From: Candidatus Poribacteria bacterium
GTDB lineage: Bacteria > Poribacteria > WGA-4E > PCPOR2b
Direction: 5' to 3'
Length of the DNA: 64,000 nt
Assembly: GCA_965208325.1 (NCBI GenBank)
Contig: OZ242326.1
Coordinates: 64,001 to 128,000 of the forward strand
Shown: positions 10,907-22,959 of the stretch, piece after piece
Layout of the letters: each line of letters opens with the position of its first letter
How positions within the stretch are numbered: the stretch's first letter is position 1
Made by a program: the position numbers and the translations under genes
The notes under the pieces: model-generated
The model's input: the letters and a program-made list of their open reading frames with translations, nothing else
Database searches by the model: none
What the model was told of the DNA's origin: nothing

Positions 10907-13900
10907 TCAAGTCCAATTGTTTTGGCGCCCACTATTCCCGCTTCTGCCTGGATCCGCTGCTGAACCTTTGCCGAAAGACATTTCTGTAAAATACTGTGCT
11001 TGGATGTTAATCAACTCGCCCTCACGCTGCAAGATGCCGCAAACGCACACAAACGGAGAAAGCTTGAAAATCGATCGGTAGCGATTATAAACATCGCGCG
11101 AAATAATCACATTGAGCAGGCTTTCCTCGTCCTCAATTAGCATGAAGGCGACTCCCTTTGCCGTGGCAGGTTTTTGTATACACACGACTAGCCCCGCTAC
11201 GCAGGTTCTTACGCCGTTTCGAAGTTTTTTCAGCGTGTCGCCGCGCCGGACACTCTTATTGAGCGTATTCCGAATGTACTGCATCGGATGAGTATGCGTC
11301 GAAAACCCCTGAACGCGGTATTCCCACGCTAACTGAGACCATAAGTCAATTCTTGGCAGCGGCGGCGCGGTGATGTCCGGATGGATGAGCAAATTCTTAT
11401 CTCGCCACCGGTCAAGTATCCACAGTTGCCACGACAGTTCCCTGCGCGGCAAACCAAAATCATCGAACGCGCCGGCGCCTATCAGATTTTCGATATTAGA
11501 TGAACTGAGTTGTGTCCGTAGGACGAAATCCTGCAGCGACTTGAACCGCCCGCGCTCACGGGCATTCACAATTGACTCGGCCTTCGCCGTACTGATACCT
11601 TTCACACAGACTAAACTTAATCGAATAGCTTGCGGTTCTGTATTTTCGAGATAACAACGGACACCGCTGCGATTAACGTTCACGCTTAAGATTTTTACCC
11701 CGCTGCGCTGGGCGTCGGCTATCAAGATTCGCACCGGATAGAACCCAAGCGGCTGATTGTTAATGAGCGCTGCAGTATAAGCGGCTGGATAGTAGCGCTT
11801 AAGCCATGCCGACTGGTAAGCGAGCTGGGCGAACACTAAAGCGTGCGATTTACAAAATCCATAGCCTGCAAACCCTTTAATACAGTCGAAAATCTGGATC
11901 GCATCGCTGCGCGAAACCCCGTTTCTGACCGCGCTGTCCACGAAGTCGACTTCCATCTTGTCAACAACTTTCTTAAAGCGGTGTTTATCCAGATCGCGCC
12001 TCAAATTTTCAGCCTTGCCAGCGGTGTAACCGGCAATGGCGCAAGCGATTTGGACGATCTGTTCTTGAAAGAGCACCACCCCCAGCGTCTCTTCAAGAAT
12101 TGGCTCAAGCAGGCGGTGCTGATACTGAATTCTCTCACGCCCCTGTCTTCGCCGAATGTAGGGGTTCACGGCGCGTCCTTGTACCGGCCCCGGCCTTATT
12201 ATCGCCACTTCAATTGCTAGGTCTAACAAATTGTGCGGTTTGACGCGCGGCAACGTCTGCATTTGGACGCGCGATTCGATTTGGAACAATCCAATCGTGT
12301 CGGCGCGGGCAATCATATCGTATACGTCGGCATCGTCAGTATTAATGTCCGCTAGGTCAATTTTAAGTCCGTAAGCCTCGGCAATCAAAATAAGGCATTC
12401 TCTAATGACAGCGAGGATGCCCAAGCCTAATAAGTCCACTTTGATCAGGCCCGCGGTTTCAACATAATCTTTGTCCCATTGGCAGATTCGTTGCCCTTGC
12501 GTCGTTGAATACTGCAGCGGCACTAACTTCGTAAGTTCACACGAAGTGATTATCATCCCGCCCGGATGGGTCGAAACGTGGCGGGGCGTTCCGATTACCG
12601 CCTGAACCTGATCTCGGAAATGCCGCCACTTTGCTTGTTTGGTATAACAATCAAACTGCTTGAATGTCTCAATCTTGCTAAAGGCTGGTTCTGGATCTTT
12701 TCGTCCTTCCGTGAAGCGTGACATCGTTTCCAACAGAGATTGCGGGTAGCCAAAAACCTTGCCAATCTCGCGGATAGCCATCTTGACGCCGAAGGTGATG
12801 AACGTGCAGGTCAATCCTACACAATCAACGCCGTATTTACGCTGAACGTAGTTCAGGACATCATCTCGATCAGGCAACCGAACATCGCGCGCAGAGGCGA
12901 AATCGAGGTCAATGTCCGGAATTGTAGATCGCTCTTCGTTGAGAAAACGGGCGAATACCAAATTATACGCAATCGGATCCACTGTCGTAATATCGAGAAG
13001 ATAAGTCACAAGCGAATTCGCCGCCGAACCGCGGCCCTGTGTCGGGATGCCCTTAGATTGGGCGAATTGCACGATATCCCACACCATTAAGAAATATCCG
13101 GCAAGGCCTAGACGCCCGATAAGCGTAAGTTCCTCGCGCAGTCTAGCTCTAATCCGGTCTGTTATTGAGGCATACTTTTTGGAGAGCGATGCCTCACATA
13201 GCATGGTCAAATATGTGCTTTCCGTATAGCCCGCAGGCACGGCATAGTTCGGGAATCGATATTTAGAAAAATCGAACTCAACATTGCATTGCTCACTGAT
13301 TAGCCGCGTATTCTTCAACGCCGACGGCATTTCTCTAAATAGCGCCGCCATTTCCTGCGGCGGCTTGAGATAGCGTTGATGGTTTGCGGACCGTATCCCG
13401 TCCGATTCGTCTAGTGTCACTTTATGGACGATGCACCGCATCACATCGTGCAATCGCGCCTTATCCTCAGCCGCATAATGCACCGCATTGCTAGCGGCGC
13501 ACGGCAGGCATAACTCGTGCGCTAGTTGACACAGTGCTTTGCAGAGACCGGTATCACCGGGTTCGAGATGGTTGTTGAGCTCGATATAGAGATGGCCGCC
13601 GGAAAAGATTTGGCGGTACGCATCTAAACGCGCCCGCGCCAATTCAATCTGATTCTGCTGCAAGAGCGCGGCGGCGTGGCTCTGTTTTCCAATCAGGCAA
13701 ATGAGATTACGTGAGCATTCGCTGAGTTGCTCTGCTGTTACTTGCGGATCGGATGCCGCGTTGGCGTGAGCTTGAGTAATCAACCGCGAAAGTTGATGAT
13801 AACCCGTAATGTCTTGGCACAATAAAACGACTTTATCAACTTTATCGTCTAAGGCTACGGAAATGACAGAACCGACAATGCTGTGAAGCCCAATCTCTTC

Positions 13901-14062
13901 GCATCGGTTAATAAACGGAATCACGCCGTACAAGCCGGCTGTATCCGTTAACGCCAACCCTTTCAATCCCAGTTTCTGCGCCCGCTCGGCAAGTACATCC
14001 GGGCTGGAAGTGCCATCCAAAAAACTGTAATAGCTATGACAGTGAAGTTCGGCGTAGTCCAT
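10907..14062 (-). CDS. dnaE2: Error-prone DNA polymerase III alpha DnaE2 (ImuC)
   Basis: PHP domain YAELHCHSYYSFLDG, GRGSAANS, PDIDLDF, DnaE2-type FQIESR.QM..LPR, C-terminal OB fold; flanked by imuB-like and SRAP genes. Confidence 0.92.
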   Translation of the reverse strand: MDYAELHCHSYYSFLDGTSSPDVLAERAQKLGLKGLALTDTAGLYGVIPFINRCEEIGLHSIVGSVISVALDDKVDKVVLLCQDITGYHQLSRLITQAHANAASDPQVTAEQLSECSRNLICLIGKQSHAAALLQQNQIELARARLDAYRQIFSGGHLYIELNNHLEPGDTGLCKALCQLAHELCLPCAASNAVHYAAEDKARLHDVMRCIVHKVTLDESDGIRSANHQRYLKPPQEMAALFREMPSALKNTRLISEQCNVEFDFSKYRFPNYAVPAGYTESTYLTMLCEASLSKKYASITDRIRARLREELTLIGRLGLAGYFLMVWDIVQFAQSKGIPTQGRGSAANSLVTYLLDITTVDPIAYNLVFARFLNEERSTIPDIDLDFASARDVRLPDRDDVLNYVQRKYGVDCVGLTCTFITFGVKMAIREIGKVFGYPQSLLETMSRFTEGRKDPEPAFSKIETFKQFDCYTKQAKWRHFRDQVQAVIGTPRHVSTHPGGMIITSCELTKLVPLQYSTTQGQRICQWDKDYVETAGLIKVDLLGLGILAVIRECLILIAEAYGLKIDLADINTDDADVYDMIARADTIGLFQIESRVQMQTLPRVKPHNLLDLAIEVAIIRPGPVQGRAVNPYIRRRQGRERIQYQHRLLEPILEETLGVVLFQEQIVQIACAIAGYTAGKAENLRRDLDKHRFKKVVDKMEVDFVDSAVRNGVSRSDAIQIFDCIKGFAGYGFCKSHALVFAQLAYQSAWLKRYYPAAYTAALINNQPLGFYPVRILIADAQRSGVKILSVNVNRSGVRCYLENTEPQAIRLSLVCVKGISTAKAESIVNARERGRFKSLQDFVLRTQLSSSNIENLIGAGAFDDFGLPRRELSWQLWILDRWRDKNLLIHPDITAPPLPRIDLWSQLAWEYRVQGFSTHTHPMQYIRNTLNKSVRRGDTLKKLRNGVRTCVAGLVVCIQKPATAKGVAFMLIEDEESLLNVIISRDVYNRYRSIFKLSPFVCVCGILQREGELINIQAQYFTEMSFGKGSAADPGRSGNSGRQNNWT

Positions 14063-14102
14063 TAATAGTCAATGCCATTCATATTTACACATGTTTCGGT
14101 AA

Positions 14103-14313
14103 GAACCTGTTTGAAAATTCATTTTATTACAGTACGCCACCACGCCTTGTAGGCGGGGCATCTTGCCCCGCCCAATGCTGGAGTAAGGTATTTGGTGGAA
14201 TCAAGCGACCGAATTGCGAAGGCGATAGTAAATCCCGCGCGATAGAAGTTCCACCGGTAATAGCAACTCAAACGCACAAGAATGGCTTTGTCACCTATTA
14301 TTCAAACAGGCTC
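14103..14313. mobile_element. 211-bp MITE with 13-bp TIRs and TAA target duplication (IS5-like ends)
   Basis: GAACCTGTTTGAA (14103-14115) vs TTCAAACAGGCTC (14301-14313), 12/13 inverted match; TAA at 14100-14102 and 14314-14316; no ORF inside. Confidence 0.7.
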
Positions 14314-14316
14314 TAA

Positions 14317-14381
14317 GTGCGGTTTCCAACCGCACCTATGGACTGGATAAATACCGGTTCGGTTAGGAAACCGAACCTATC
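14317..14381. repeat. Two tandem REP-type hairpins
   Basis: GTGCGGTTTCCAACCGCAC-CTAT and GGTTCGGTTAGGAAACCGAACC-TAT palindromes, each reading ATAGG on the minus strand (GTAG-family-like). Confidence 0.65.
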
Positions 14382-15181
14382 TATCGGCATAGTTTCCAAT
14401 CGTCACGGACAAGATCGTGGCAAACTGTTAACTCGCGTCCGGAAGTATACAATTTGAAGTAAATCAACTCTTGCGGTTTTTCTGTCCACCAAGCGTCCTC
14501 TAGCTTCCAGACATCTATAATGCCGTCAAAATATAGCCACTTGTCATCGTATCGCATGCGCTCGGGAAAGTCGATGCACCCAATTTTTTTTGACGTTACC
14601 GCAATTCGCTCTGAATGGCCGCTGAGTTCCTTGCCCCAGATGGTTAAATGTTGTGCAGTGGTGTCAGCGGTTATTGGCGGTTGATAGAACGTAAGCGGGG
14701 ATGGGTCGACGCCTTTTCCTAACTCTGACATCGCAGCCCCTTGCTTTCCAAATTGCCGGATTAGATCCGCCTTTTTGATGTTAGCCAACTGTCCGAGCAT
14801 GCAGAGTCCCAATCTGTCCAGACGCCTATGCAGTTCGGCATCGAGCGGCAGAAGCGAAACGCTCTGATTTGCCATAAACGCCGGCGTCTCCTCTGATGAT
14901 ACGACGCACGCCGCATCCGGGGTTGCGTTTTGCGCCGCGGCAAGACTGGCGAAACGGGACGATGCGACACCGACGCGGATATCGGGGCAAATCCCTTTCA
15001 GCTCGCCTCGTAAATGTCTGATGAAATCGTCGGCTTCGTCCGTAATTTCGGAGACCCCTAAATTTACATAGATGCTGTTATTTTTGATTTCACACCTCAG
15101 ACGCCCAGCCTCTTCCGTCAATATTTCTTGAATCTCTTTTAATTGAGCCTTAAGGTTCTCTACCAGCAAGCAAGCAATCAT
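14381..15181 (-). CDS. Short ImuB-like inactive Y-family polymerase accessory protein
   Basis: VGVASSRFASLAAA, F.....VSLLPL, RLDRLGL..LGQLA, RQFG..G (Y-family thumb-like); C-terminal W..E..WW....YF motif; directly upstream of dnaE2. Confidence 0.75.
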   Translation of the reverse strand: MIACLLVENLKAQLKEIQEILTEEAGRLRCEIKNNSIYVNLGVSEITDEADDFIRHLRGELKGICPDIRVGVASSRFASLAAAQNATPDAACVVSSEETPAFMANQSVSLLPLDAELHRRLDRLGLCMLGQLANIKKADLIRQFGKQGAAMSELGKGVDPSPLTFYQPPITADTTAQHLTIWGKELSGHSERIAVTSKKIGCIDFPERMRYDDKWLYFDGIIDVWKLEDAWWTEKPQELIYFKLYTSGRELTVCHDLVRDDWKLCR

Positions 15182-15251: not shown

Positions 15252-15505
15252 GAAAAAAATCACCCCGAATAATCATTCGCCGAATTCTTCCGAAAAGGCG
15301 GCAACGAATACTGTGCTACGGCGCGTTACGGCTGGTCAATACAGGTCGGGGATTGGGGGTAAGCTTCTGTAGGTTGGGTAGATCAATCAACCGACCGAAC
15401 AGTCTTTGAAACCGAGTTTTTTATAGTTTGTATCAAATGACCCCATGAGTTAAACTGATAACAGATGTTATTTCCATCAATTACCATGAATCCATGGAGG
15501 TCATT

Positions 15506-16306
15506 ATGAAACCACAAAGTCATTCAAACTACGGTATCAATCGTCTGGAATCAAAGACGGCGAGAGCGGCAATTATTCAGAAGATTGCGTCAGACTTCAA
15601 TCTGATGCCTATCCTTGCCGAAGCCTACTATAATCAGATTTCTTCCTACTTTGCCCAACACGCCGATATTAAACTCACATCAGGCCAAATCTGCTATGAA
15701 GCCGTAGCCGCCGACGAACCCGCAGGTAAACACATTGCCTTAGCCAAAAAGGTCTCCTGCCAACTCACCCTCAATGATGTGCACACCGATCTTGAGGTGT
15801 TAGCCAACTATGGACTTGCAGGACTCAGACGACATCGAATCTTACGGTTAACCAAACAAGCCTATGACCAAGACGCTTTGCTCAGCTATGAAGATTTAGC
15901 GGTGCTATTAACCACCAGCCCGGCGACCGTCAAACGAGACATTCGACAGTTGAAACAGCAAGGGTTTTTTGTAATGACTCGCGGCGCCAAACACGACATG
16001 GGCCCCGGCATCTCTCATAAAACCCAAATCCTAGAACTGTACTTTAAAGGCTATCAATTCACCGACATTGAGCGAAAGACGAACCACACCGAACGCGCCG
16101 TGTTGAGATACTTGCGTAATTTCACTCAGGTAGCAACCCTCCATCATCAAGACTTTCCAAAGGAACAGATACGGCTCATCACCCATCTCTCTGACCGATT
16201 GATTCGTGAGTATCTCTCCCTGTATGATAAATACGAACATACAGAGCGAATGACGACTTTACTTCATCCTGAACCCGTTGATGAAAAAAAGGGGGAAAAC
16301 TCATGA
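15506..16306 (+). CDS. DUF1670 domain protein A (likely start 15506 after GGAGG)
   Basis: GQI...AV..DEPAGK, QAYDQDALLSYEDLAVLL, TRG..HDMGPGISHK and H...AV.RY motifs, recognised as DUF1670. Confidence 0.8.
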   Translation: MKPQSHSNYGINRLESKTARAAIIQKIASDFNLMPILAEAYYNQISSYFAQHADIKLTSGQICYEAVAADEPAGKHIALAKKVSCQLTLNDVHTDLEVLANYGLAGLRRHRILRLTKQAYDQDALLSYEDLAVLLTTSPATVKRDIRQLKQQGFFVMTRGAKHDMGPGISHKTQILELYFKGYQFTDIERKTNHTERAVLRYLRNFTQVATLHHQDFPKEQIRLITHLSDRLIREYLSLYDKYEHTERMTTLLHPEPVDEKKGENS

Positions 16307-17196
16307 GTAAATCATTGACTCGAACCGAAATCAACGAGAAGAAAATCAGACGTATCAATGATAAATCGTTGCGGCAGTTGCTGATTCATCGCTTTATCAA
16401 TTCCTATGGGTATGACAAAGGCGAAGTGACTGCCAAAGCCATTGTCGATGACATCGTCAAAACTATTGAAGACTATTTCCTGATTCGCTTGCCACTTGAT
16501 AAACTCGCCGCTGGAGAACAACTTCCTGATGAACGAATGCTTAGCTATGGTCAACTGGTTTGGATGGCTGTGCCGATTGACGAATATCCACAGAGAGCCA
16601 AGTCAATCGTTAAAACCCGCATGAAGCCTGTGGTTTTAAGCTTTGTGGCCCCCGAGGACATTGAACACTATTACAGCGGCTTCAGCTCTCGTGAACTCAG
16701 AATTCATCGATTGGTGCGATGGTGTTATCAAGCCTATGACCAAGGGGCATTGTTGACTCAACTAGACCTGGCTGTGTTGCTCAACGTCCGCGACCCAGTA
16801 GTGAGTGAGTATGTCAACGAGTGGCAAAGCACCAGTGGAAAAATCTTGCCCACTCGCGGCAACATTCACGATTTATCGGCGGCAATTACACACAAGAAGG
16901 AGATTATTACCCTTTATCTACAAGGGCACCTGACTCCGACCATTGCTGCCAAAACCAAGCACTCCAAAGAAGCTGTTGACCGATACATCCATGATTATGA
17001 GTCCGTTAAGATTGTTCGCACCGCTACCGATGACATTGACAAAATCTCTCAGATTACCAAACTTTCCAAGCGCGTCATCTCTCAATATCTCGACCTAATT
17101 CCTCAACATTCGCTGAATGACATCAACGCAAACTTGGAAGACGGCAAAGATAACACCGTGCCGTCCAGTTCCAAACCTACAGGAGACTTGCAATGA
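16303..17196 (+). CDS. DUF1670 domain protein B (paralogue, ATGA-coupled to A)
   Basis: GQLVWMAV, QAYDQGALLTQLDLAVLL, PTRGNIHD..AITHK and HSKEAVDRY motifs. Confidence 0.8.
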   Translation: MSKSLTRTEINEKKIRRINDKSLRQLLIHRFINSYGYDKGEVTAKAIVDDIVKTIEDYFLIRLPLDKLAAGEQLPDERMLSYGQLVWMAVPIDEYPQRAKSIVKTRMKPVVLSFVAPEDIEHYYSGFSSRELRIHRLVRWCYQAYDQGALLTQLDLAVLLNVRDPVVSEYVNEWQSTSGKILPTRGNIHDLSAAITHKKEIITLYLQGHLTPTIAAKTKHSKEAVDRYIHDYESVKIVRTATDDIDKISQITKLSKRVISQYLDLIPQHSLNDINANLEDGKDNTVPSSSKPTGDLQ

Positions 17197-17465
17197 CAGC
17201 ATACGCCTATTATTGCTTAGACATGGGAAAACAACGTCTCTTTCTTTGGCATCGGCTTGGCACGCCATAGCCATTTTGGTATACTTTGTCACGCTTCTAG
17301 CCAAACCAAATGAATTTCTTGACGGATAAGCTAATTAAGCCAACATAACTCGCTCATTTGATGATGGCTCGAAGTCAGTAACCACGCGCATTCCAACTAT
17401 CATCAGGTCATTTGATACTATTTTCTTCAAAACTCGGTTTCTTAATCGCAGCAAAACCTGTACTT

Positions 17466-18460
17466 TAGCCCCAGCGGGGCGGCAGGTATATAGAAAACAC
17501 AGTAACCCAATCCCCAAAGCCCCAGATGAGAATCAACCGACCGAATAGAGAGGGATCAACTGAGCGGATAGCGAAGGCGATAGTCTTCTCAAGTTATTAT
17601 AGTTCTTGTAGGTTGGGTAGAGCGGATTCATCCAAAAACATCCATGAAAACGAACCGCCCTGTCAACCGCAACACGTACAAAATTCGAGGCTTGTAGCGA
17701 AACCCAACGCTTTTAAAACCTCACCCATCCCAATTGATTACCAAACACCAACACCGCTGCTAATCCCGGACAACCCTTTTTCCATGAACCTACCCCCAAT
17801 GGTTAAACAATCATGCTTGTCCAATAAGGTGTAAGTGCTAGGAAATCCGGCTACGCTTCATAACCGAATGATCATGTGCGCTCTTAATCATCGCCCATCA
17901 TTCAATCAAAAAAATCACAGTTCAGACAGTTCTTGTAGGTTGGGATTAATTCAGCGCCTAGATCAACCGACTGTATAAGGCGCGCAATAGCGTTTTTGCA
18001 ATCTCAATTCCCCTCCTTACCAAGGAGGGGATAGGGGAGGTTATAGGACGGATCAGCTCAGCGCACAAGGAGTGCAATAGTCTTGGTTCTTAAAGTTCGA
18101 ATCTCGCCGTGGAACCTACTCCCGAAAATCTCGAATCCACCCCCGTCGGAGCGATCTCCGAATCGCGAAACATACCCTCATAATCACAGTCCATTCATTT
18201 AATCATATAAATCACAGTTCAGACAGTTTTTGTAGGTTGGGTAGAGCGGATACACCGAAACATGCCCATTATAACGAACCGCTCTGTAAGCTGAATGTAT
18301 GCAAGATACGCTGGATGCAGCGAAACCCAACGCTTTTATAACCTCCGCCCCTCCAAAAACGTCGGGTTTCAGTGAAGACTATGAGTAAATTATCGCTCTC
18401 CCTGCTCGGTCGGTTGATCCGTCGCTATTCGCTCAGTTGTTCGTTCTACAAAACCTACAA
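17466..18460. repeat. Dense REP/REPIN-like repeat patch
   Basis: About 115-bp diverged units TGTAGGTTGGGTAGAGCGGA...AACGAACCGC...AGCGAAACCCAACGCTTTTA at 17607 and 18231, with an inverted partner ending CTACAAAACCTACA at 18459; AATCACAGTTCAGACAGTT twice; CCCCTCCTT-acc-AAGGAGGGG at about 18010; GCCCCAGCGGGGC at about 17469. Confidence 0.8.
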
Positions 18461-18681: not shown

Positions 18682-21600
18682 ATGGCAAATAAAAAACCAC
18701 GAAAACGACGCAAAAAAGCAAACCTGCAAGCAAACCCCAAGCGGCAAGCATACGATCCGCTAAGGGGATACCGCTATCAAATATTGCACAGCGTACACGC
18801 TTGGTTGGGCCTTTCTGAAGATCAGGACCTCTATCTGGAATGTGCGGGAGATTTTGACACGATATCAGATGATGTTGCTACGGCAGTGCAGGTCAAAGAC
18901 ACGAAACACAACATCACGCTCAGATCTCAAGAAGTAACTGATGCAATCAACAACTATTGGAAATTGCGAGCGGACAACCCCGATAGGCGTGTGAAATTCC
19001 GTCTTCTCACACGATCCAAGATAGGCACGGAACGCGGAAACCCGTTTGGAGAGGGTAAATCGGGGCTTCACGTGTGGGGTCGCTGTGCAGACGATGAAGC
19101 AACTATCACGGAACTCTCTAAATTTCTGCAGTCAGATGAAAAAATTACAGATGACGTGAAGAACTTTCTAAAAAAATCAGATTCCAAAGAAATCTACGAA
19201 AAGCTCATTGAACCTATTTCTTGGGAAACGGGCAGCAAACCCGCTAGTTATGTTGAGCAATCTATACATGACAAACTAGTTCTTCACGGGAATCAACTCG
19301 GTTTCTTACCTTCTGAAGCCAAAAAAGTTGTTGATCCGCTAATCCAAGAAGCTTGGAAGGTAGCAACGCAAAAGGCAAACCGCGTTCTCACCAAAACCCG
19401 ATTCCTCGAAATTTTCGAGAAACAGACTACACAAATAGTCTCGACCCAGTATTTGCGGCATCTGCAAATGCAGGTCGCTACCATGAGTAATGTTGGCACT
19501 CCCTTTATAGGTGACCCAACTGATATATCAATTCAATCTCACTCTTCTATACTGAAAACAATACCGCCGCTCTATCCTGATGTAACTTCAAGAACCAGTT
19601 TGCTTGCAAGCATTCATGCTAAACTTCTTTCAGAGGGGATAGTTGTCATTCACGGCGGAGCAGGAAGAGGAAAGACAACACTCGCAAAATTAACCGCAAA
19701 GGAGACAAGCGAATCATGGTTTTGGCTGAATCTAACTAATAGAGAGCCGTCTCAAGTAGTCCACCATTTACAACAACTCACTATTGAAATCAGTAATCAA
19801 CCCACACCAGTCAACATCGCCCTTGACGATCTGAATTTACAACCCCAGCAGTTACGGAGGTATGAAGAAATCTTGGGAGTAGTGGTTTATAGAGTGTTTG
19901 AGCGTGGTGCAAAAGTGCTGATTTCAAGCCAACATGAACCCCACGACAATCTCACCCGCCAACTCGGTGTATCACGGTCAGTGGCTGTTGATGTGGGTGA
20001 CTTTTCGCTATCTGAAATTGAGCAATTTGCAAAACAGTTGGGGTGTCCTGCTGAAGACGCAAAAAAATGTGCACAGGTAGTCCTGTGGCATACAAGTGGA
20101 CATCCGAGACTTGTACACGCTCGACTCGCTCGACTACGGCAAGATAACTGGACTCGACCAGATATAATCGAAAGCATGGTGCAAACACCCGGAGAGGTAT
20201 TGGACGAACGGGAAGCCGCGCGACAATTGCTCGTAGAGTTGCCAGACGATCAACAGGAATTTCTCTATAGACTTAGCTTGTTGCCTATGCCTTTCCGGAG
20301 AGATTGCGCGCTCTACATCGGCGAGATAACAAAACCTATCCCTTTTTCAGGAAATATTTTCAGTCAACTAGTCGGTCCTTGGATAGATCAAATTCATAAA
20401 ACCTACTACACAATTTCACCTTTATTGACTAATGCGGCCAAGCAGATTTGGCCAGAAAAAAAGATAAACGACCTTCACGCTCAAATCGCAGAGGCAATCC
20501 TCGAATCGACAGATCTGACCAAAATAGAAGCACGGGCTGTGCTCTATCATAGTATGCTCGGACAGAACGAGCTAGGCTTTTTTGTTGTGATTCAGGCATT
20601 GATGACCGCTCCAGAGCACCATTGGAAAGAACTTAGCCATGAATTCTCGTGGTTGATACATCTTAAAACTGATTCTCGCGGAATGTTATTTCTTCAGAAT
20701 CCCGTTGTGAATAATCTCTTTCGCTCACTCCAACATCGTATTGCGGTTGAGGTCGAACCAGAGGCTGCACCAAAGATACTTGAAAATTGGGATAAGAAAG
20801 TTGTGCCATACGAGCCGGACCATTTGTATCACCTAGATCGCCTAATGCTGGCACAGCAGGCATTGACGTATGGCCAATCGTCACTTTCAGCCAAAAAGAT
20901 AGTAGGCTATCTCAAAGAGATTATCGAAATTACAAAAAAACATAAAGAATTCTTAGAATCAGATGATGATTCGACGGGAAAGCTTAAAGGATATAAAACC
21001 GATAAATCTAACTTTTTCAGCCTTCTAGTTGGCTTTATTTGTGCTCGTCGTCCAATTTACGCTCCGTTTCTCAGCAGCCTTATTGGCGAGTTGGATGAAC
21101 TTCAACCGGAAAGTCGGACTTTATTATTGGCTGATTTCGAGGATGATACCATTCACTCTCGAGTTCTCATGGATGGTATATGGGAATCGGAGGCGAACCG
21201 CGAAAATCCGGATTGGACAAGATGTTTTCAGGTATTAGACAAAGCAATTGAACGAACTATCGCTTGGGGTTATCCCCATCTCGCTGCTGCATCAGCAAGG
21301 TGTAAAGCCATGATCCATGATGAATGCTTACATGATGCCGATACGGCCCATAAAATTCTTCAGGATATAATATTAAAAGTGGGGCAATTTCCGGTGCTAG
21401 AAGAAGCAATAGCAGCCATATATTTGAATCAGGGACGCTATAAGGAAGCACTCAATATTTATGAGCGAATTCTTCCCGACTGGAATCCACCGTCGGGACA
21501 GTTGGATGTTATGCCTCCAGAAGGTTGTCGTCGCGCCGCAATTTGCGCCGCAAATTTGGGCGATTGGGGTAAAGCCGCCGCCTTTTTTGTAGATGGAGCT

Positions 21601-22959
21601 AATAGAACTCGTGAGAACACCGAAAGACATATCGGGTTTTATGCGGATGCGGGATATGCGCAATTCAAGGCCGGTTATTTCCTAGATAGCATAAGTCTAT
21701 TGAAACGGGCGTTGCAAACATTTGAGATACTTCAGCAAAACAATGGACATGACAGGTATTTTACTATAAAGCGACGTTTAGCGTACACTTTGAAATGGAT
21801 GACAGAGCAAGAGGGTGAATTTAGATCCTCAGAACTTGTAGAACCCCCGGTGGGTTTCTGCACCAATCCGGAGACAGATGAAGGTGTTTCATCTCTGCCT
21901 GATTTTTCAATCGCGTACGCTTGGCTTTATCTAGCGCAGATTGAATACAACTTTGGTCATGGAACAGAGGCTTTAGAGCACGCCGTGGACGTCATGGACG
22001 GTGATGAATGTCCCAACTTAGATTTCATTCGCGCTTTCGCGGAAACACAAAAAGATTTTAGAAACAAAACCTTTGATGAACTGCCACAACGAATAAATCA
22101 ACTAGTGATTGCGTGTGACTTAGTACAGAGTCATATCAAGAGTGCGAAGGGACTTGAAGAACAACGAGACAAAAATTTGCCTAGTGTAAATCCTCCCAAT
22201 TTCGCTTCTGTTGCGAACATCACCACTATGTTAGTAGCCGCACTGCTTGTTCAAATGTGGACTAACTCAGGTATGCATAGTGTTCTAGCAACATGGCGTA
22301 GAAATTCAGCGGAACTACCCATCCAAGAAAACATGTTCAGTGTTCTCGATCTGATTGAATCCATGTTATCCAGAGACCAAAAGCACGCGTTGGATGTAAT
22401 GAGAACGCAAGGAGCCAAATATGAAAAACGGCTTGTGGCAACATTAAAGATTCTCAATAGTAACAAAACGAGCCCGGAAATTCTCTTCCATGCACATGTG
22501 CTCATCACGACAGCTTTCATTGGTCAGCTGTATGAAGGATATGTCATCCAGGACTTAGCTGAATCTCTTTCTGCACAATGGCTAGAAAAAACTAGAGCGC
22601 CCGGAATTTTGCAAATGCCAAGGATTACGGTCCCTGAGATAGAACGTGCTTGCAAGGGGAGTGAGTCTGCGAAGAAAAAAATTGGCAAAATTCTCCTCGC
22701 CGCACAACAAGCTGTCTCAATAAGGGTGTCGACTGAAACCGTACAGCAGTTTCGTAATTGGGCAGAATCGGAATCAAGCGCGAAACAGGAACCGAAAACA
22801 GCAAAAAATCCGATAGCACAACGCCTAATCCGCGCGATGGAAAAACCGCCGCATCTCACCCATGAAGACGTTGAAACGCTGCGTCAATCAATCGAAGAAG
22901 GTAAAATTCCTGTAAAATTCGACTCGCCTTTTGAGCCGGATGAATCTGAAAAGCAATGA
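18682..22959 (+). CDS. Avs-like STAND NTPase: N-terminal Cap4/DUF4297-like PD-(D/E)xK nuclease, P-loop, TPR-like repeats, short antitoxin-like C-terminal tail
   Basis: LRGYRYQ...LYLE..GDFD...AVQVK nuclease motif; GGAGRGKT Walker A; IALDD Walker B; TSGHPRL (GxP); helical repeats. Confidence 0.75.
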   Translation: MANKKPRKRRKKANLQANPKRQAYDPLRGYRYQILHSVHAWLGLSEDQDLYLECAGDFDTISDDVATAVQVKDTKHNITLRSQEVTDAINNYWKLRADNPDRRVKFRLLTRSKIGTERGNPFGEGKSGLHVWGRCADDEATITELSKFLQSDEKITDDVKNFLKKSDSKEIYEKLIEPISWETGSKPASYVEQSIHDKLVLHGNQLGFLPSEAKKVVDPLIQEAWKVATQKANRVLTKTRFLEIFEKQTTQIVSTQYLRHLQMQVATMSNVGTPFIGDPTDISIQSHSSILKTIPPLYPDVTSRTSLLASIHAKLLSEGIVVIHGGAGRGKTTLAKLTAKETSESWFWLNLTNREPSQVVHHLQQLTIEISNQPTPVNIALDDLNLQPQQLRRYEEILGVVVYRVFERGAKVLISSQHEPHDNLTRQLGVSRSVAVDVGDFSLSEIEQFAKQLGCPAEDAKKCAQVVLWHTSGHPRLVHARLARLRQDNWTRPDIIESMVQTPGEVLDEREAARQLLVELPDDQQEFLYRLSLLPMPFRRDCALYIGEITKPIPFSGNIFSQLVGPWIDQIHKTYYTISPLLTNAAKQIWPEKKINDLHAQIAEAILESTDLTKIEARAVLYHSMLGQNELGFFVVIQALMTAPEHHWKELSHEFSWLIHLKTDSRGMLFLQNPVVNNLFRSLQHRIAVEVEPEAAPKILENWDKKVVPYEPDHLYHLDRLMLAQQALTYGQSSLSAKKIVGYLKEIIEITKKHKEFLESDDDSTGKLKGYKTDKSNFFSLLVGFICARRPIYAPFLSSLIGELDELQPESRTLLLADFEDDTIHSRVLMDGIWESEANRENPDWTRCFQVLDKAIERTIAWGYPHLAAASARCKAMIHDECLHDADTAHKILQDIILKVGQFPVLEEAIAAIYLNQGRYKEALNIYERILPDWNPPSGQLDVMPPEGCRRAAICAANLGDWGKAAAFFVDGANRTRENTERHIGFYADAGYAQFKAGYFLDSISLLKRALQTFEILQQNNGHDRYFTIKRRLAYTLKWMTEQEGEFRSSELVEPPVGFCTNPETDEGVSSLPDFSIAYAWLYLAQIEYNFGHGTEALEHAVDVMDGDECPNLDFIRAFAETQKDFRNKTFDELPQRINQLVIACDLVQSHIKSAKGLEEQRDKNLPSVNPPNFASVANITTMLVAALLVQMWTNSGMHSVLATWRRNSAELPIQENMFSVLDLIESMLSRDQKHALDVMRTQGAKYEKRLVATLKILNSNKTSPEILFHAHVLITTAFIGQLYEGYVIQDLAESLSAQWLEKTRAPGILQMPRITVPEIERACKGSESAKKKIGKILLAAQQAVSIRVSTETVQQFRNWAESESSAKQEPKTAKNPIAQRLIRAMEKPPHLTHEDVETLRQSIEEGKIPVKFDSPFEPDESEKQ

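Follow-up and report, generated by a model that had tools for sequence, protein, structure and literature searches.

The window described here is a stretch of 64,000 nucleotides from the genome of a Candidatus Poribacteria bacterium (contig OZ242326.1, positions 64,001 to 128,000 of the forward strand). This genome, G000, is a single contig of 4.71 Mb; other genomes are numbered G0xx and element loci L0xx. At positions 15423–17421 (+ strand) the window carries a mobile element of 1,999 bp, an insertion sequence (IS)-like unit with the termini ATAG...CTAT, whose only two genes encode proteins of the family DUF1670 (Pfam PF07900). The first gene, orfA (15506–16306, +), encodes 266 amino acids and has a GGAGG 5 nt upstream of its ATG. 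Its paralogue orfB (16303–17196, +; 297 amino acids) is read in the −1 frame with respect to orfA, with which it shares an ATGA overlap. The genes are surrounded by two inverted repeats. A repeat search returned an outer one of 13 nt, which is perfect (15408–15420 and 17429–17441), and an inner one of 19 nt with 89% identity (15430–15448 and 17400–17418), the core of which is a perfect 13-mer (15430–15442 and 17406–17418). An earlier note on this DNA, made from the sequence alone, had placed both repeats and both DUF1670 genes at these positions, where they were indeed found.

From left to right, the locus begins with the left arm of a host hairpin of the repetitive extragenic palindromic (REP) type, GAAACCGAGTTTT (15408–15420), which is target DNA outside the element. 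It is followed by TT (15421–15422), one copy of a 2-bp target duplication or of a crossover dinucleotide, the place of which within the T-run is ambiguous. The left terminal inverted repeat (TIR) of the element, ATAG-TTTG-TATCAAATGACCCCATGA (15423–15448, +), contains a 4-nt insert relative to the right end. Beyond the leader and the two genes, a non-coding right part (17197–17399, +) leads to the right TIR, TCATCAGGTCATTTGATACTAT (17400–17421, +), which together with the flanking TT reads AAATAG (Lys and a stop) on the opposite strand. The second dinucleotide copy, TT (17422–17423), is followed by target DNA, namely the remaining hairpin loop (T-CTTC) and the right arm AAAACTCGGTTTC (17424–17441).

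The limits of the element were drawn from the comparison of copies, from the limits of homology and from contig ends. In BLASTN comparisons with 15 elements of six other genomes (75–96% identity), homology is lost at 15420/21 on the left and at 17423/24 on the right, in both cases inside the outer repeat and outside the inner one; the elements so compared are 74–95% identical by a further alignment. At three loci it runs on for 6 to 26 bases beyond these limits on one or both sides (L024 in G002, where the hairpin is present too, L018 and L020). Of 22 public runs, all available as assembled contigs, which cannot show rare forms, four (X1, X5, X6 and X7) were examined, and contigs of public runs have loose ends at 15421 and 17423. 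The ends were also sought in 40 loci, 16 from the searches of G000 and its close relatives and 24 from a search of the phylum, these being best matches and not every copy. Both ends were found, with an intact gene pair, in 38 of them (the exceptions are L048 and L055), down to 72% DNA identity, so that the terminal inverted repeats are conserved among family members. In all 38 elements TT stands directly outside both ends, and ATAGTTTGTATCAAATGACC of the left end is present with at most five changes. Among the loci of G006, L017, L025, L031, L038 and L040 include some with larger insertions, and clean ends were not found in three.

The orthologous locus of G002, a genome of the same genus in which the flank is 95% identical to that of the window copy, is empty and retains the hairpin intact: GAAACCGAG-TTTTTTT-CTTC-AAAACTCGGTTTC (in the extract, ...cagtctttGAAACCGAG-TTTTTTT-CTTC-AAAACTCGGTTTCttaatcgcagc). 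An uninterrupted site, which the earlier note had named as something to be sought, is therefore available for comparison. Since the window has six T before ATAG and three after CTAT, against seven T in the empty G002 site, the insert comprises 15423–17421 (1,999 bp) plus a gain of the 2-bp TT. The other three copies in G000 have six and two T, against six in the commonest empty hairpin, again a gain of two. The unit of movement is ATAG...CTAT with inverted ends of 13–19 nt, and its insertion adds exactly 2 bp (TT). In the earlier note the hairpin had been restored by the deletion of 15421–17420 and one copy of TTTT, a proposal that was essentially correct and missed the exact site by a few T.

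The 2,034-bp stretch is found three more times in G000 at about 100% identity, giving four copies in total, and because the whole stretch recurs in this way its structure is not due to chance. When aligned with 300 bp of flank on either side, the four copies have unrelated flanks and differ solely in one T of the T-run that adjoins the right end on the outside. All four are intergenic, and PF07900 is confined in G000 to these four A+B pairs. In a public run whose contigs match the window without differences, the flank contig has a depth of 15 and the element contigs have depths of 52–67, which fits four copies, metagenome depths being a rough guide. Of 41 close relatives, 9 carry PF07900, and across the phylum 40 of 176 genomes do. 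It invariably occurs as an A+B pair and often in several copies, some genomes having 15 or more matches, and genera are mixed (for example, 2 of 20 genomes in g5 and 22 of 65 in g14). The prediction of further copies with the same ends and different flanks has thus been borne out, and the window region 15423–17421 is a mobile, IS-like element that is active or recently active.

It could instead be supposed that the pair is a non-mobile, duplicated regulatory cassette at fixed loci, the inverted ends of which are operator sites or chance. The proteins do resemble transcription regulators, and one homologue carries the label 'biotin operon repressor' in one source. With four near-identical copies at unrelated places, an empty site, TT at 38 of 38 elements and a patchy, multi-copy spread, this reading has next to no probability.

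In a tblastn search with orfA, the plasmid collection gave no match. Twelve rows of public runs from ten studies, X5–X16, labelled as sponge or marine metagenome, contain between one third and more than half of the words sampled, and the contigs of X5–X7 include pieces at least 99% alike. The five G018 copies found in the search of close relatives share one strand and are spread over positions 0.25 to 5.8 Mb of their 6.8-Mb contig. In G000 there are two copies per strand, and from these placements we infer that the element is unlikely to keep a fixed orientation to the replication fork of the kind seen in single-strand transposition.

The outer repeat is an independent host hairpin of the REP type and not part of the element. 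G000 contains 124 further hairpin loci (at most two changes per arm), 72 of them with the loop TTCTTC in either orientation, and many belong to tandem arrays or to mosaics with other short repeat modules. The hairpin 28-mer (at most two mismatches) occurs also in genomes without DUF1670 genes (2 in G001, 8 in G003 and 20 in G007); G002 has 22 of them and G018 has 266, and the reversed control gave 0 everywhere. It is therefore a short palindrome with many extragenic copies, 124 loci in G000 and 2 to 266 per genome in five relatives, as is characteristic of a REP. In the four G000 copies, as well as in L024 (G002), L056 (G059) and L047 (G060), the element occupies the identical position in the loop and has the same orientation relative to the asymmetric loop. 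For this genome, the earlier note was correct in placing the element inside a REP hairpin that exists, in its empty form, as a multicopy repeat.

One of two Y1_Tnp (HUH) genes in G000 (G000:C1:3321944–3322279) has four hairpins within 400 bp, three on one side and one on the other (3321584–3322320). Repeats flanking the gene are the layout described for REP-associated Y1 transposases. By this layout, and leaving aside strict status as a REP-associated tyrosine transposase (RAYT), the gene and its flanking hairpins are like a REP/RAYT unit. The second Y1_Tnp gene (1955941–1956273) has no hairpin within 3 kb and other repeats, of the GGCAAGATGCCGCGCCTAC type, around it. Units that contain the hairpin are also arranged in tandem, at spacings of 193 bp and 352 bp (for example, 1894627–1895399, and 2032412–2033469, which adjoins copy 2). 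In the window itself, intergenic repeat modules lie on both sides of the element, TGTAGGTTGGGTAGA at 15368 and 17607 and AATCAACCGACCGAA at 15385 and 17531 (regions 15368–15402 and 17531–17621). Another sequence, ATCTCCGAATCGCG, has 94 genome matches at no more than one mismatch.

The statement that the element targets REP palindromes holds for G000 and is too narrow for the family. The sites of the 38 elements are 7 canonical hairpins, 2 degenerate, hairpin-like sites (L016 and L018), 1 site cut by a contig end (L050), and 28 sites of a second kind, so that 9 of 38 elements occupy hairpins and 28 occupy stop codons of genes with a predicted C-terminal domain (CTD) of the type IX secretion system (T9SS). 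These 28 sites, in 23 genomes, coincide with the end of an opposite-strand open reading frame (ORF) that reads ...G(I/V)YFY...(T)R(K/R)M(L/V)I(L)K-stop. Ten of the 28 flanking ORFs were scanned. FlgD_ig (PF13860) is above its cut-off in all ten, CHU_C matches occur too, and Por_Secre_tail (PF18962) is matched at E ≤ 3e-4 in all ten and above cut-off in six. By these domain matches, the flanking ORFs of the second site type are predicted to carry type IX secretion C-terminal sorting domains.

The reconstructed targets, of which CTAT-TT-CAAAAT and TTAC-TT-CAGAAT are examples, are the complement of a stop and a Lys codon. Once the element is in place, the right junction, CTAT-TT-CA..., reads TTG AAA TAG on the strand of the gene. 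The target gene therefore retains its last Lys and a stop, whatever the original stop, because the end of the element rebuilds AAATAG. Insertion is base-precise and in one orientation at both kinds of site, the T-run in the loop of the REP hairpin and the Lys-stop end of T9SS-CTD genes. The right junction also recreates a target, and the G018 copy L021, which directly adjoins an old right end of the element, fits this.

In G000 just 13 ORF ends fit the strict CTD pattern. Behind three of them stands a decayed right end of the element, and behind two, 5 nt on, a hairpin. The family's two targets can thus be neighbours, which could explain a shift of target use. The decayed right ends, at G000:C1:2325643, 2333448 and 4057034, supply the Lys-stop of the CTD ORFs (AAATAG or AAAGTAG, then TATCA...), and the hairpins begin 5 nt past the stops of two T9SS-CTD-type ORFs at G000:C1:2894325 and 2899011. 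A further solo right end stands at a CTD-like gene end at G000:C1:2139017. From there to 2139404 extends a remnant of about 390 bp resembling a MITE (a miniature transposable element with inverted repeats), with a diverged left and a good right end, which adjoins the CTD-like gene end and lies outside any hairpin. Elsewhere in G000 the ends of the element occur just as such short remnants (solo right ends and the MITE-like piece).

Identity to the window element is 89.7% for L058, at a CTD site, about 90% for L047 and L018, at hairpins, and 78.2% for L056, also at a hairpin. Because a CTD element is closer to the window copy than a hairpin element is (89.7% against 78.2%), target type does not go with relatedness. 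A guide-RNA-like or clade-bound choice of target was accordingly considered and dropped, as target type does not track relatedness. CTCGG/CCGGGTT, considered as a motif to the right of both target types, lies at differing distances and was unconvincing.

The second kind of site also bears on the alternative, raised in the earlier note, that the two inverted repeats form a single bipartite TIR of 35/36 bp. The hairpins elsewhere would then be deletion derivatives, TIR-TIR mini-MITEs; the outer arms are identical at all four G000 copies, and the hairpin can be read as a left plus a right end. This alternative is very improbable, for homology to the elements of other genomes ends between the repeats and 28 of the 38 elements have no outer hairpin. 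The hairpin is intact at the orthologous locus of G002, exists in the element-free genomes G001, G003 and G007, and flanks a Y1_Tnp gene. In G018 there are 266 hairpins, yet all five copies examined sit at CTD ends.

Both proteins are clear members of DUF1670, with E 7.4e-64 (215.6 bits) for orfA and E 1.1e-59 (201.9 bits) for orfB against a cut-off of 25. They are paralogues of each other, with 34% identity over 186 amino acids (E 2e-27), and orfA has weak further matches to helix-turn-helix (HTH) families, including HTH_DeoR at amino acids 124–159. A word-indexed search found 1,433 relatives of orfA at E ≤ 0.001. The 120 relatives listed all have PF07900; many of them come from metagenome contigs only about 2 kb long, and the name transposase is given to none. 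For orfB, 961 cluster representatives were found at E ≤ 0.001 in a library clustered at 50% identity. Single chains with several units, namely P0183 and P0265 (about 530 amino acids, two DUF1670 units) and P0133, P0134, P0138 and P0147 (about 930–950 amino acids, three units), are natural fusions of paralogues. The family also reaches distant lineages, with one match labelled Gemmatimonadota and with Methanosarcina acetivorans positive as a control.

The AlphaFold model of B (mean predicted local distance difference test score, pLDDT, 84.5) has helices at residues 7–69, a beta hairpin at 84–113, a winged HTH at about 129–192, and further HTH units at 195–240 and 245–279. A and B each look like a small N-terminal alpha/beta domain followed by a winged HTH and two more HTH modules. 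A predicted complex of A with B scored 0.15, 0.34 and 0.13 against a mark of 0.32, which counts neither for nor against binding. In an alignment of 81 sequences (B numbering), H197 and Y228 are invariant and R139, D155, D190, K198, H220 and Y262 are conserved in at least 90%; the same columns are obtained with A placed first.

We infer a role as recombinase for the pair from its being the element's sole genes. Proteins A and B probably bind the ends and the target of the element and perform, or at least direct, strand exchange. As to the chemistry itself, the A/B pair is the likelier agent, and an enzyme borrowed from elsewhere is distinctly the less likely one. With six HTH modules together, A and B would bind the inverted ends and the target, and strand exchange would follow with a 2-bp stagger at the fixed TT dinucleotide. 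A reaction of this kind is suggested because TT is invariant and non-palindromic, the orientation is fixed, and the CTD target (CTAT-TT-...) is like the joined ends (CTAT-TT-ATAG). It would most likely be conservative and proceed via a circular junction, with cut-and-paste less likely.

Several results weigh against this assignment. Pfam scans of A and B gave solely DUF1670 and HTH families. No NCBIfam model was above cut-off, the nearest transposase-related match being the HTH part of an IS1 model (E 0.012). Sequence searches of the Protein Data Bank (PDB) with the proteins gave no match, a profile search just a designed HTH repeat, and a Foldseek search of PDB with the B model nothing at E ≤ 0.001. 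In a VIA-align comparison with 48,161 chains the best Z was 6.2, and the top rows, limited to residues 126–269 (the HTH modules), were winged-HTH, sigma region 4, LuxR and resolvase-HTH proteins. The N-terminal 127 residues folded alone (pLDDT 83) reached a best VIA-align Z of 4.2. The conserved His, Tyr, Asp and Lys need not be catalytic, because HTH and winged-HTH domains constrain such positions too. Hairpin and CTD targets have little sequence in common beyond TT, so that recognition of both by one pair is hard to account for. Four copies in G006 have an orfB broken by TGA or a frameshift, so that some elements multiplied or persisted without an intact B. Neither an excision joint (15422–17424) nor a circle joint (right end to left end) was among the joints listed for the four runs of assembled contigs, in which rare forms would not appear, so that this result favours neither side. 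Finally, a six-frame search of G000 found five rve genes over cut-off, several DDE_Tnp_1, four tyrosine recombinases and two Y1_Tnp, which could act in trans.

More specific catalytic domains were likewise not seen. DDE_3, of the IS630 type, is absent from A and B at E ≤ 0.1, and rve, DEDD_Tnp_IS110 and the resolvase catalytic domain (PF00239) have no Pfam match in either protein. The likeness to resolvases is restricted to the HTH (residues 193–267, Z 5.3–5.6). The catalytic fold of tyrosine recombinases (residues R-K-H-R-H/W-Y) has no Pfam match in A or B and is not among the fold matches. The best scores in the ESM Atlas, 0.77–0.81, are under the lead level. Two candidates gained no support. 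Topoisomerase VI-A, the top VIA-align row (Z 6.2, 62 residues, root-mean-square deviation 2.3), is tied with many winged-HTH proteins and shares a common fold only. The motif THK...HSxxxVDRY, which we take by eye to resemble box II of tyrosine recombinases, was the basis for the second, and there the profile matched only a designed HTH repeat, with no recombinase fold. No known catalytic fold is visible in A or B, which does not show the absence of one, and the absence of a recognised transposase from the element, as reported from the sequence, agrees with the Pfam, NCBIfam, Foldseek and VIA-align results.

These results allow the element to be mobile and yet non-autonomous, A and B acting as specificity or regulatory factors while an enzyme encoded elsewhere (Xer-type, Y1 RAYT-like or the DDE enzyme of another IS) performs the chemistry. 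The modelling of both proteins as HTH arrays is consistent with this, as are the tyrosine recombinase, Y1_Tnp, rve and DDE_Tnp_1 genes of G000, the multi-copy state of the elements with broken orfB in G006, and the identity of the target hairpin with the repeat that flanks a Y1_Tnp gene. Set against these points, no other element with the same ends is found in G000, and no sequence like its ends occurs within 3 kb of the rve or DDE_Tnp_1 genes there. Mobilisation in trans may thus occur, but no candidate for it emerged. The six-frame search of G000 found no serine recombinase (PF00239), no IS630-type DDE_3 and no IS110-type DEDD enzyme. In 38 of 40 loci, with DNA identity as low as 72%, an intact pair accompanies the ends. 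A fixed host partner would need a very wide distribution to match the distant lineages in which the family occurs. We consider this explanation the weaker one, though it deserves to be kept in mind.

A stricter form of the assignment to the A/B pair is that DUF1670 pairs are a new class of recombinase or transposase built only of HTH modules, in which the invariant Tyr and His would do the chemistry. The catalytic residues would then be H197, H220 and Y228 of B and H171, H194 and Y202 of A. Breaks with a 2-bp stagger at TT, and the joining of a circular form of the element to the target, would be the work of an A/B hetero-oligomer. The motif THK...HSxxxVDRY is retained as part of this reading alone. 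Topoisomerases, in which the catalytic tyrosine lies in a winged-helix (CAP-type) domain, provide an analogue. We hold this form to be rather doubtful.

The leader of the element (15439–15502, +) suggests how its expression may be controlled. In it, GACCCCATGAG (15439–15449) is complementary to CCATGGAGGTC (15492–15502), which lies over the Shine-Dalgarno sequence of orfA. RNAalifold gives this stem −13.2 kcal/mol and pairs it in 27–29 of 29 distinct sequences; covariation is not seen, because the arms hardly vary (only G-C/G-U changes, none on both sides). Judged by this predicted pairing, the fold-back may mask the ribosome site of orfA in read-through transcripts, and the genes would then probably not be expressed from such transcripts, a safeguard found in other insertion sequences too. 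The right part (17197–17399) contains, in an alignment of 30 elements, conserved blocks and an imperfect subterminal palindrome, GATGATGGCT...AACTATCATC. Its folding is not significant (z −0.05 on the + strand and −1.45 on the − strand), and on neither strand did RNAalifold with 30 elements give a consensus structure for the right end. Covariation of the palindrome, which had been read by eye, is unsupported by RNAalifold. An Rfam search of 15300–17600 at E ≤ 1 returned only a chance small nucleolar RNA match (E 0.28).

An A_AAA_AAG heptamer lies in the frame of orfA, 13 nt before its stop (16285–16306), and the −1 frame of orfB is open upstream. By our own reading the heptamer is found in about two thirds of 30 aligned elements and not in all. 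A programmed −1 frameshift yielding an A-B fusion is conceivable from this arrangement. The conserved G-run is explained by the ribosome site of orfB.

Tobes & Pareja (2006, PMC1525189) report the targeting of REPs in five IS families (IS3, IS110, IS4, IS256 and IS5) and attribute the choice of target to the transposase. IS1397 and ISKpn1 (IS3) and IS621, ISPa11 and ISPpu9/10 (IS110) likewise insert specifically in extragenic palindromes. These REP-targeting elements encode enzymes of the rve-type DDE or IS110-type DEDD kind; A and B match neither, and the DUF1670 family also uses T9SS-CTD stop codons. The short TIRs, the fixed 2-bp duplication and the HTH-rich DNA-binding parts are shared with IS630 and Tc1-mariner elements, which differ in that the dinucleotide here is TT and not TA (38 of 38), and in that the present element has two ORFs, no DDE_3 and orientation-specific insertion. 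A likeness to IS110/IS1111 and to serine (IS607-type) elements lies in the resemblance of the target to the joined ends, in the fixed orientation and in the very short crossover; a 2-bp crossover is typical of serine recombinases. However, no DEDD or resolvase domain is present in A/B or in G000, and the TIRs here are clear. IS21 and IS3 elements also have two consecutive coupled ORFs, and the A_AAA_AAG heptamer before the orfA stop with orfB in the −1 frame adds to this likeness. In the present element, by contrast, the ORFs are paralogous to each other, no rve or AAA+ IstB domain is found, and the heptamer is not in all elements.

Tn7 inserts at attTn7 through the TnsD pathway with base precision and in one orientation; the site is the 3′ end of a conserved gene, which stays functional. 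This is an analogue for the T9SS-CTD target. Unlike Tn7, the element is 2 kb long, has no TnsA/B/C/D-like genes, targets the numerous members of a gene family, and restores their last codon along with the stop. A literature search found no paper naming DUF1670 or PF07900 and none combining insertion sequence, type IX secretion, C-terminal domain and target site, with subscription journals thinly covered and ISfinder outside the search. By gene content the element represents a new insertion-sequence family, for which no description was found in the sources searched, and possibly a new kind of recombinase.

Next to the element, the − strand region 10907–15181 contains a gene of the DNA polymerase III alpha type (1,051 amino acids with PHP, NTPase, finger and HHH domains) and, upstream of it on the same strand, an ORF of 266 amino acids without a Pfam match (14381–15181); the element lies just beyond. 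Together, the two are possibly an error-prone polymerase cassette, to judge from their domains and arrangement. On the other side, at 18682–22959 (+), an ORF of 1,425 amino acids has a weakly Cap4-nuclease-like N-terminus (E 4.6e-5, below cut-off) and repeats like tetratricopeptide repeats (TPR), and its translation contains a P-loop-like GGAGRGKT motif. It looks like a candidate defence gene of the STAND (signal transduction ATPase with numerous domains) type.

To our knowledge, prokaryotic insertion sequences move by means of a handful of enzyme types, the DDE, DEDD, HUH, serine and tyrosine enzymes. The element described here is a widespread, mobile unit of 2 kb whose sole genes match none of these. 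If the A/B pair is the enzyme, recombination would here follow a new chemistry or, at the least, be carried out by a new fold, and its small size and its base-precise insertion in a fixed orientation would be traits of genome-engineering tools. If it is not, the element would be a compact parasite that provides targeting alone and borrows its catalysis. In either case two 'safe-site' strategies occur in one family, the loops of REP hairpins and the last codon of a large family of genes for secreted proteins, which the element itself repairs, and DUF1670 gains a biological context.

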